From a virus (taxonomy: Duplodnaviria; Heunggongvirae; Uroviricota; Caudoviricetes), in the IMG/VR virus record IMGVR_UViG_2925891887_000003: a DNA stretch of 55,008 nucleotides. One strand, 5' to 3'. Positions 50,014-50,452 of the stretch are shown here, piece after piece. The notes beneath the pieces are model-generated. The model saw only the letters and a list, made by a program, of their open reading frames with translations. It did no database searches and was not told the origin of the DNA. Each line of letters begins with the position of its first letter. Within the stretch, counting starts at the first letter, position 1. A program made the translations under genes and the position numbers.

Positions 50014-50289
50014 ATGAAAGTCCAGATTTTAAACAATAACTGTGAAGTCGTTTGGTCATACGACATAGCCGCCCCTGTAGATCAGAGCGGCGATAGCTGG
50101 ACCAATGGGAAACATCAGATTATGGCTGGAGTTGTGTTCTCTTTACGCCGTGCTTTGGAACAGGCTGAAGTATTTCCATCAGACCCTGAATGGAAATGGC
50201 CTTTTTCTATTTGTCCAAATTCGGAGAGCACATTTCAGAAAATTGGTCAGAAAGTCGCACTCGAAGAGCATCAGCCAACTGTTTCCTGA
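50014..50289 (+). CDS. hypothetical protein, first ORF downstream of cI
   Basis: ORF 49993..50289; ATG at 50014 with AGGTG RBS. Overlaps a convergent minus-strand ORF. Confidence 0.35.
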   Translation: MKVQILNNNCEVVWSYDIAAPVDQSGDSWTNGKHQIMAGVVFSLRRALEQAEVFPSDPEWKWPFSICPNSESTFQKIGQKVALEEHQPTVS

Positions 50290-50452
50290 TTTTTTCAGGT
50301 AACTCGTCGGCATCGCAGAAACAACAACGCTCGATCATGTTGAAAGCCGATTCGTAGAACTGTTTCTGCTGAGTGTCGCTGAGACAGGAAAAGAGCGACG
50401 TTACGATGATTTTATTAATTGCATTATCAAGTTCTTTTTCATCAAAAGTCAT
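50207..50452 (-). CDS. hypothetical protein (convergent, overlapping the previous ORF)
   Basis: 81 aa, ATG with AAGGA RBS, acidic, several Cys. Confidence 0.35.
   Translation of the reverse strand: MTFDEKELDNAINKIIVTSLFSCLSDTQQKQFYESAFNMIERCCFCDADELPEKIRKQLADALRVRLSDQFSEMCSPNLDK

Follow-up and report, generated by a model that had tools for sequence, protein, structure and literature searches.

Two convergent genes beside the repressor gene of an SfV-type prophage are both under purifying selection and may form a module with mutually exclusive expression

The comparison of the window, which is the whole 55,008-nucleotide stretch of viral DNA analyzed here, with its diverged relatives indicates that two small convergent open reading frames (ORFs) at 50,014–50,452 are both real genes under purifying selection, and that their constrained coding regions abut tail to tail, with no spacer, at about nucleotide 210 of the unit. 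The two ORFs, one for 91 aa on the plus strand (gene A, 50,014–50,289) and the other for 81 aa on the minus strand (gene B, 50,207–50,452), had been noticed in an earlier sequence-only reading, in which their good ribosome-binding sites and their overlap of about 80 nt (83 nt, 50,207–50,289) were correctly described. A homology search of both products, which was proposed there as a check, found conserved homologues for both. Our favored reading, held with moderate confidence, is that A and B constitute a self-contained two-gene accessory module, which occupies a variable slot where the PL operon begins and the two genes of which would be expressed in a mutually exclusive manner of the excludon type. 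This cassette layout recurs next to the repressor gene in a prophage family that is very common and that includes e14 of K-12, and the slot is a compact and genetically tractable place in which excludon-type control tied to the lysis–lysogeny switch can be studied and new lysogen-expressed functions can be sought.

The right end of the window is an SfV/CPS-53/e14-type lambdoid prophage integrated next to a tRNA-Thr gene, and the sequence identity over the region amounts to 100% with E. coli PC-NDM34 and to 99.3% with Shigella phage SfV. The immunity region is defined by a LexA-like cI-type repressor gene on the plus strand (49,181–49,807; HTH_3 and Peptidase_S24 domains, Pfam PF00717 at 9e-28 and PF01381 at 1e-10; "LexA family protein" in PGAP), to the left of which the minus strand carries an O-like replication gene, a cII-like ymfL and cro. 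On the 3′ side of cI, a terminator hairpin was read from the sequence at 49,829–49,865 of the plus strand (GCACCGAAC, 8 nt and GTTTGGTGC, then a U-containing tail), and a promoter scan gave a PL-like sigma-70 promoter on the same strand at 49,861–49,889 (TTGCCA-17-TAGATT). This promoter overlaps the third copy of a 21-nt operator-like repeat (49,866–49,886, repeat family D1), which was taken as OL, the other two copies being located at 49,089 and 49,138 in the cro–cI intergenic region. The record of SfV also carries a "putative rho-independent terminator," designated by its authors, directly after cI, where the SfV cI is a different repressor gene (675 nt vs. 627 nt) and its terminator lies upstream of the start of the DNA match to SfV. 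The pair had been placed directly downstream of cI, in the N/rex position. The N/rex position was confirmed, as the pair is located 3′ of the LexA-like cI and just behind the OL/PL-like operator and promoter; the placement downstream of cI (end at 49,807) was also correct, but not its directness, because the terminator, the operator copy and the PL-like promoter lie in between. From this gene order, gene A is the first gene behind OL/PL, which is the position of N in lambda. On the 3′ side of the pair, an STnc100/PasD-like sRNA element is followed by yfdR, yfdS, yfdT, xis and int.

Some additional features of this prophage were also observed. The tRNA-Thr gene (53,568–53,640, minus strand) directly adjoins the integrase gene (52,387–53,550, plus strand), and is followed by proA in the E. 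coli genome that is identical here, an arrangement that marks the prophage attachment site. The O-like replication gene (47,008–47,949, minus strand) contains a repeated SDPSK/SDASK stretch at about 47,520–47,710, which repeats in alternative frames too, and the repeats coding for it are probably origin iterons; an Rfam match of these repeats to mir-5880 was judged to be spurious.

For gene A, the ORF list gave a plus-strand ORF of 98 aa (49,993–50,289), within which the internal ATG at 50,014 yields the 91-aa form. This ATG is the conserved start, every divergent homologue of gene A starting with MKVQIL or MKVLVI, and the 91-aa form is the one called by PGAP; a ribosome-binding site (AGGTG, 50,003–50,007) is present 6 nt before it. 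The gene corresponds to orf33 of SfV and its product matches phrog_3195 at full length (6.4e-70, 1–98/98), and its homologues in four other lineages share 51–69% aa identity. The constrained core extends from residue 1 to about residue 70 (50,014 to ~50,223), and residues ~70–91 are an unconstrained tail, which runs antisense into gene B and varies so that the protein has 91, 107 or 122 aa. The predicted structure model of gene A was unreliable.

Gene B is absent from the annotation both in the SfV record and in RefSeq at the identical E. coli locus. Its ATG at 50,452 is preceded at a distance of 7 nt by a ribosome-binding site (AAGGA, 50,464–50,460 on the minus strand), and its product matches phrog_3311 over the full length (1.2e-55, 1–81/81). 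A profile search found homologues with 56–64% identity in Klebsiella, Salmonella and Yersinia, and an exhaustive HMMER search added a few at 34–50% with conservative substitutions; a genome-contig scan with the gene B alignment confirmed 0 loci. The protein is acidic and is predicted to be a three-helix bundle, with helices at residues 5–23, 26–46 and 53–75 in an AF2 model (pLDDT 81.7), for which a fold search gave no specific fold neighbor. Its CCxC motif was considered as a metal site and rejected, the motif being lost in remote homologues. Together with the codon-phase test described below, the conservation indicates that gene B is a real, conserved protein gene and that the annotation needs correcting.

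Early protein searches with A and B returned mostly near-identical or frameshifted entries, and since PHROGs reflect gene calls only, divergent copies were sought. A diverged homologue of gene A (P0040) led to a locus (L003) at which a diverged and uncalled copy of gene B is also present, with conservative substitutions, and both ORFs were found in convergent orientation in Yersinia (L169), Salmonella (L171) and a metagenomic phage (L295). Between the window and L003, pS was 0.86 and pN 0.18 in the part that belongs to A only, and 0.83 and 0.18, respectively, in the part that belongs to B only. Over four lineages, the pN/pS proportion ratio was 0.25 in the A frame (nt 1–192 of the unit) and 0.26 in the B frame (nt 278–439), compared with 0.44–2.5 in the control frames of those segments. 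The variable sites over five lineages were distributed in the same manner, amounting to 36, 22 and 52 of 64 each at codon positions 1, 2 and 3 of the A frame (nt 1–192, p = 6e-7), and to 43/75, 27/74 and 65/74 at positions 1, 2 and 3 of the B frame on the minus strand (nt 217–439, p = 1e-9). The suggestion in the earlier reading that at most one of the two may be real is thus contradicted, both being conserved in Klebsiella, Salmonella, Yersinia and metagenomic phages and both constrained in their own frame.

A sliding-window analysis indicated that the wobble phase switches from the plus frame to the minus frame at nt 205–215 of the unit, and the switch at about nt 210 argues for two abutting coding regions and, therefore, against dual coding. 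The plus frame remains open to nt 274 in the window, to nt 322 in L295 and to nt 367 in the other lineages, and it has a pN/pS proportion ratio of 1.8 in the segment 277–438, indicating no protein-level constraint there. The tail of gene A overlies the conserved C-terminal helix of the gene B protein. From these patterns of substitution, the 83-nt overlap represents a tail of A that results from read-through and is unconstrained, and not a dual-coding segment, and the case illustrates that the apparent overlap of convergent ORFs can be of this nature rather than dual coding.

The geometry of the pair is also conserved. The distance from the ATG of A to the ATG of B is exactly 439 nt, with zero indels, in the window, L003, Yersinia L169, Salmonella L171 and L295, five loci that represent four distinct lineages with 57–67% nucleotide identity, L003 and L171 being 94% alike. 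In L295 and L296, the pair is located just upstream of lysis genes and away from cI, where it is still convergent and keeps the 439-nt geometry at 57–60% nucleotide identity; because the pair is present in another neighborhood with the same geometry, A/B can be regarded as a mobile unit. The remote homologues of gene B, P0058 and P0061, also adjoin lysis genes and are oriented against their neighbors, P0061 being flanked by Q and the holin gene and P0058 being located just 5′ of the holin genes. Across the loci, B is always oriented against its neighbors and A with them. One phage (L294) carries a homologue of gene B without gene A, indicating that B does not strictly need A. The position of the pair relative to the leader described below is also variable, gene A being second after the leader in L003 and the leader being downstream of the pair in Yersinia. 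Of the 5426 complete E. coli genomes, 424 (about 8%) contain the full 439-nt unit; the RefSeq entries sampled under it mostly show one hypothetical protein only, so that standard annotation misses one gene of the pair.

Several database matches had to be set aside. Most of the low-identity "divergent" matches of A and B are frameshifted or recombinant truncations, and a tblastn match of gene A in SfII (40.7%) is a mosaic junction, at which the first 22 codons are shared and a stop and then an unrelated gene come next. In the E. coli matches H34, H70 and H71 (nt 238–439 of the unit), a truncated gene B of the first ~67 codons is joined to a phage tail protein gene; these copies are recombination remnants and explain several of the "divergent" database proteins.

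The surroundings of the pair suggest that it occupies a cassette slot. The left border is a conserved structured 5′ leader of the PL transcript (49,903–49,969, plus strand). In related phages, this leader of ~67 nt stands behind at least five different immunity/promoter sequences, and RNAalifold gave two hairpins with 13 pairs, 4 of which have compensatory changes; a covariance model of the leader gave 92.7 bits at 49,903–49,969 and no second copy in the window, the next-best hit being partial and located elsewhere (E = 0.16). When the window was aligned with SfII and an APEC prophage, the left flank (leader) and the right flank (from ~50,485) were found to be conserved, with unrelated sequence between them. 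The slot contains a 68-aa plus-strand gene against the overlapping SfII_36 in SfII, a 73-aa plus-strand gene against a gene for a 144-aa ECs1072-family protein in APEC-O117, convergent and overlapping genes for 193 aa and 78 aa in the second Yersinia cassette, and ymfJ against ymfI, also convergent and overlapping, in e14 of K-12. Seven other slot genes had no match in Pfam, NCBIfam or PADLOC. In Yersinia enterocolitica (L169, 3034–4490, 3′ of cI), two convergent cassettes are arranged in tandem, i.e., the A/B pair, the leader and then the 193-aa/78-aa pair, with the same promoter-like block before the minus-strand gene of each.

The right border of the slot is an element similar to the STnc100/PasD sRNA family (50,540–50,755, plus strand), a family that has been described as a prophage sRNA (bioRxiv 10.64898/2026.05.13.724894). 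Its match to Rfam RF02076 covers the full model (1–206, E = 1.8e-6) with 41.4 bits, which is below the gathering score of 47, and it ends in a 10-bp hairpin (50,708–50,744; inverted repeat I17) and a U run. A RefSeq "frameshifted hypothetical protein" (ymfH-like; the pseudo-CDS equivalent to 50,565–50,884) spans the element, and this pseudo-CDS is probably the RNA element mistaken for a broken CDS. When the 5426 complete E. coli genomes were compared with 49,808–50,938, 2822 of them matched some part of it; the short matches, among which are those in Stx2c phages, are located within ~50,705–50,860 and are unannotated there. The segment 50,705–50,870 is more widespread than any other piece of the region, and it carries a GC hairpin (50,854–50,869) as well as an inverted repeat, the arms of which are 25 nt long (50,753–50,777 and 50,817–50,841).

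Between the start of gene B and this element, a promoter-like block was identified on the minus strand (50,484–50,511), which consists of a −35 element TTCACC (50,511–50,506), a 16-nt spacer and an extended −10 element TGG TATCCT (50,492–50,484), with the candidate −10 sequence TGGTATCCT and a predicted transcription start near 50,478. The block is kept 5′ of the minus-strand gene in the window, L003, Yersinia, Salmonella and SfII, with variation in the spacer sequence, and it is also located before ymfI of e14 and before the minus-strand gene of the second Yersinia cassette; it thus precedes unrelated minus-strand cassette genes as well as gene B. Its general form is TTNACC, 16 nt and TGnTAYCCT, followed about 30 nt on by AAGGAA and the ATG. 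By plain hexamers it scores 8/12 and it was not called by the consensus scan, which instead reported the spacer hairpin (50,508–50,489) as terminator-like on the minus strand. In L295, however, the loop of the spacer hairpin is 3 nt shorter and the 16-nt spacing is nevertheless retained, for which reason the block was read as a promoter rather than as a hairpin. We infer from this conservation that the block is an extended −10 promoter for gene B. At the other end, no convincing minus-strand terminator was found on the 3′ side of gene B; the reverse strand of the leader was considered as an intrinsic terminator for gene B and rejected, its fold z-scores (−0.7 to +0.8) being no better than those of shuffles. 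A scan for terminator-like sites between the two start codons (50,014–50,452) found none on either strand.

These features lead to the following proposal for the control of the pair, in which the promoter activity, the timing of expression and the interference are deduced from the arrangement of the DNA. Because gene A is first behind OL/PL and the leader, its expression would be tied to the loss of cI, and A would not be made unless the LexA-like repressor is inactivated or absent. Gene B, with a promoter-like block of its own at the right-hand border of the slot, would be transcribed toward PL and antisense to A, and it could, for that reason, be made in the repressed lysogen. Since the convergent genes abut with neither a spacer nor a terminator, each transcript should run through the other gene. 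In the lysogen, B would accordingly be on and A off, and the firing of PL would turn A on and B down, the exclusion being brought about by transcriptional interference and/or degradation of double-stranded RNA. No usable transcription start site data for an SfV lysogen (M90T) were found in a literature search. For the e14 pair, however, ymfI–ymfJ has been listed as a convergent excludon from RNA-seq (PMC12288877), ymfJ is strongly induced late in the SOS response, with its protein detected, and ymfI changes little (PMC11002266), and the e14 induction iModulon includes ymfJ and not ymfI (PMC12132413). Excludon-type control is proposed for A/B because antisense overlap is forced by the layout and the counterpart in e14 behaves as expected, where the support from e14 is by positional analogy only, as A and B share no homology with ymfJ and ymfI.

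As for what the products do, no match was found for either protein in Pfam, NCBIfam, PADLOC or solved structures. It may be speculated that both proteins act in a single process, in which A would be the lytic-phase partner or antagonist of the lysogen-expressed B. This functional link is a conjecture because neither protein has an informative sequence or fold match, and it is suggested by the fact that the two genes are co-conserved and co-mobile. A bolder extension, which we put forward tentatively, is that e14/SfV/CPS-53-type prophages could have, where the PL operon begins, a dedicated slot that recruits unrelated convergent pairs (at least five types), each being a lysogeny-versus-lysis switch module. 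The antisense gene would act in the lysogen, for example in exclusion or defense, and the PL-driven sense gene would, upon induction, silence it by convergent transcription and neutralize or replace its product, with the leader and the outward-facing promoter as the boundaries of the slot. If this is true, A/B would represent a new system of this type with two proteins, the gene for one of which is unannotated in RefSeq.

Among the other explanations, a toxin–antitoxin or abortive-infection/self-immunity module is possible, though doubtful. In such a module, B would be the effector in the lysogen and A a PL-made neutralizer, or the reverse, and convergence would set the ratio. The two small genes are co-conserved and co-mobile, they are located in moron/defense positions next to cI or next to lysis genes, with a Fic/Phd pair beside them in L295, and A points along the lytic operon and B against it, all of which would fit. 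On the other hand, PADLOC, Pfam, NCBIfam and fold searches gave no match for such a module, typical type II toxin–antitoxin pairs are co-directional operons rather than convergent ones, and B is present alone in L294.

It is rather improbable that A and B are functionally unrelated and kept together merely by tight linkage, with the flanks serving as recombination anchors for mosaic exchange. The mosaicism of lambdoid phages is evident here, with junctions at the leader and at the right flank, and the presence of B alone in L294 is also in line with such an explanation. However, the pair retains the exact 439-nt geometry at 57–60% nucleotide identity after relocation, and at least four unrelated cassettes in the slot share the convergent layout, which suggests that the layout itself is selected.

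That gene A is a functional analogue of N of lambda or Nun of HK022, acting as an elongation factor on the RNA of the PL leader, is very unlikely. Gene A is first after PL with the structured leader of ~67 nt directly upstream, and PL transcripts must pass the terminator-ended sRNA element to reach yfdR–xis–int, as would be expected for such a factor. However, the earlier observation that neither product is Arg-rich like N was confirmed, as no Arg-rich motif and no match in Pfam or NCBIfam were found for either; in gene A in particular, the Arg-rich N-terminus is absent and there is no antiterminator match in Pfam, NCBIfam or PHROG, including the N families of Pfam. The leader is, moreover, kept in SfII, APEC and e14 with unrelated slot genes and is, hence, uncoupled from A, in agreement with the altered order of leader and pair in L003 and Yersinia and with the location of the pair in the late region in L295, and a second leader copy equivalent to nutR or putR is absent from the window. 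The antiterminator role that had been considered for the pair thus finds no support, as A lacks an N-family match and the leader is single-copy and uncoupled from it. Least credible of all is that one ORF is real and the other an antisense shadow ORF held open by codon usage, since, even though the SfV authors and PGAP annotate the plus-strand ORF alone and the plus frame is open for 107–122 codons across the minus-strand gene elsewhere, indicating that chance antisense ORFs do arise here, only 83 nt are common to the two ORFs, each of which has frame-specific purifying selection outside them, B protein homologues extend to 34–50% identity with conservative substitutions and the A core is kept at 51–69%, and the effect is limited to the A tail (plus-frame ratio of 1.8 in 277–438), so that codon-phase analysis has already refuted this reading for the gene cores.

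Returning to the proposed excludon-type module, we compared A/B with known systems. The pair has some likeness to N/nutL of lambda in that A is the first gene of the PL operon, 3′ of cI and OL/PL, with a structured leader before it, and it differs in that A is without an Arg-rich motif or family match and the leader of the window is single-copy and uncoupled from A. The leader also resembles putL of HK022 in being an RNA of ~70 nt with two stem-loops directly 3′ of PL in a phage without an N-like protein; as a put RNA it was rejected, however, because the covariance model gave no match in the HK022 immunity region (putL/putR) and no second copy in the window, and only short motifs (ACGAAC and CAGGATGA) are shared by eye. 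The rexA and rexB genes of lambda, which are co-directional with cI and cotranscribed with it from PRM, are similar as accessory genes beside cI that can be expressed in the lysogen. The rex-like cotranscription with cI that had been considered for the pair does not hold, as B is encoded on the strand opposite to cI and is preceded by a promoter-like block of its own, and as a terminator and PL separate A from cI; no significant match to RexA/RexB or to known exclusion or defense proteins was found in Pfam, NCBIfam or PADLOC.

Prophage morons are known at cI-proximal or Q–lysis positions, such as bor and lom in lambda and bstA next to cI in BTP1. A/B is like them in being a small accessory unit at moron positions with variable presence among similar phages, a putative promoter of its own lying before B, and is unlike them in being a two-gene convergent unit of fixed geometry for which no terminator of its own was found. 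With excludons, it shares the convergent arrangement, the lack of a terminator between the genes, the transcripts that must overlap and the control of one gene by a repressible promoter; it is distinct in that its layout belongs to a phage cassette that is mobile and linked to the lysis–lysogeny switch, and the mutual exclusion of A and B is a predicted one. The ymfJ/ymfI pair of e14 (b1144/b1143) has a cI-like repressor (ymfK), PL, the same leader, a PL-proximal ymfJ and a convergent ymfI, with an overlap of 63 nt compared with 83 nt in the window, and its right flank likewise contains the promoter-like block (TGGTATGCT) and an STnc100-like/ymfH region, followed by xis and int. In contrast, neither ymfJ and A nor ymfI and B have any sequence similarity, the e14 products being 102 and 113 aa compared with 91 and 81 aa. 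Taken together, the closest known counterpart of A/B is the ymfJ/ymfI pair of e14, and conceptually the nearest are excludons and morons, A/B being a new pair that is not homologous to that of e14.
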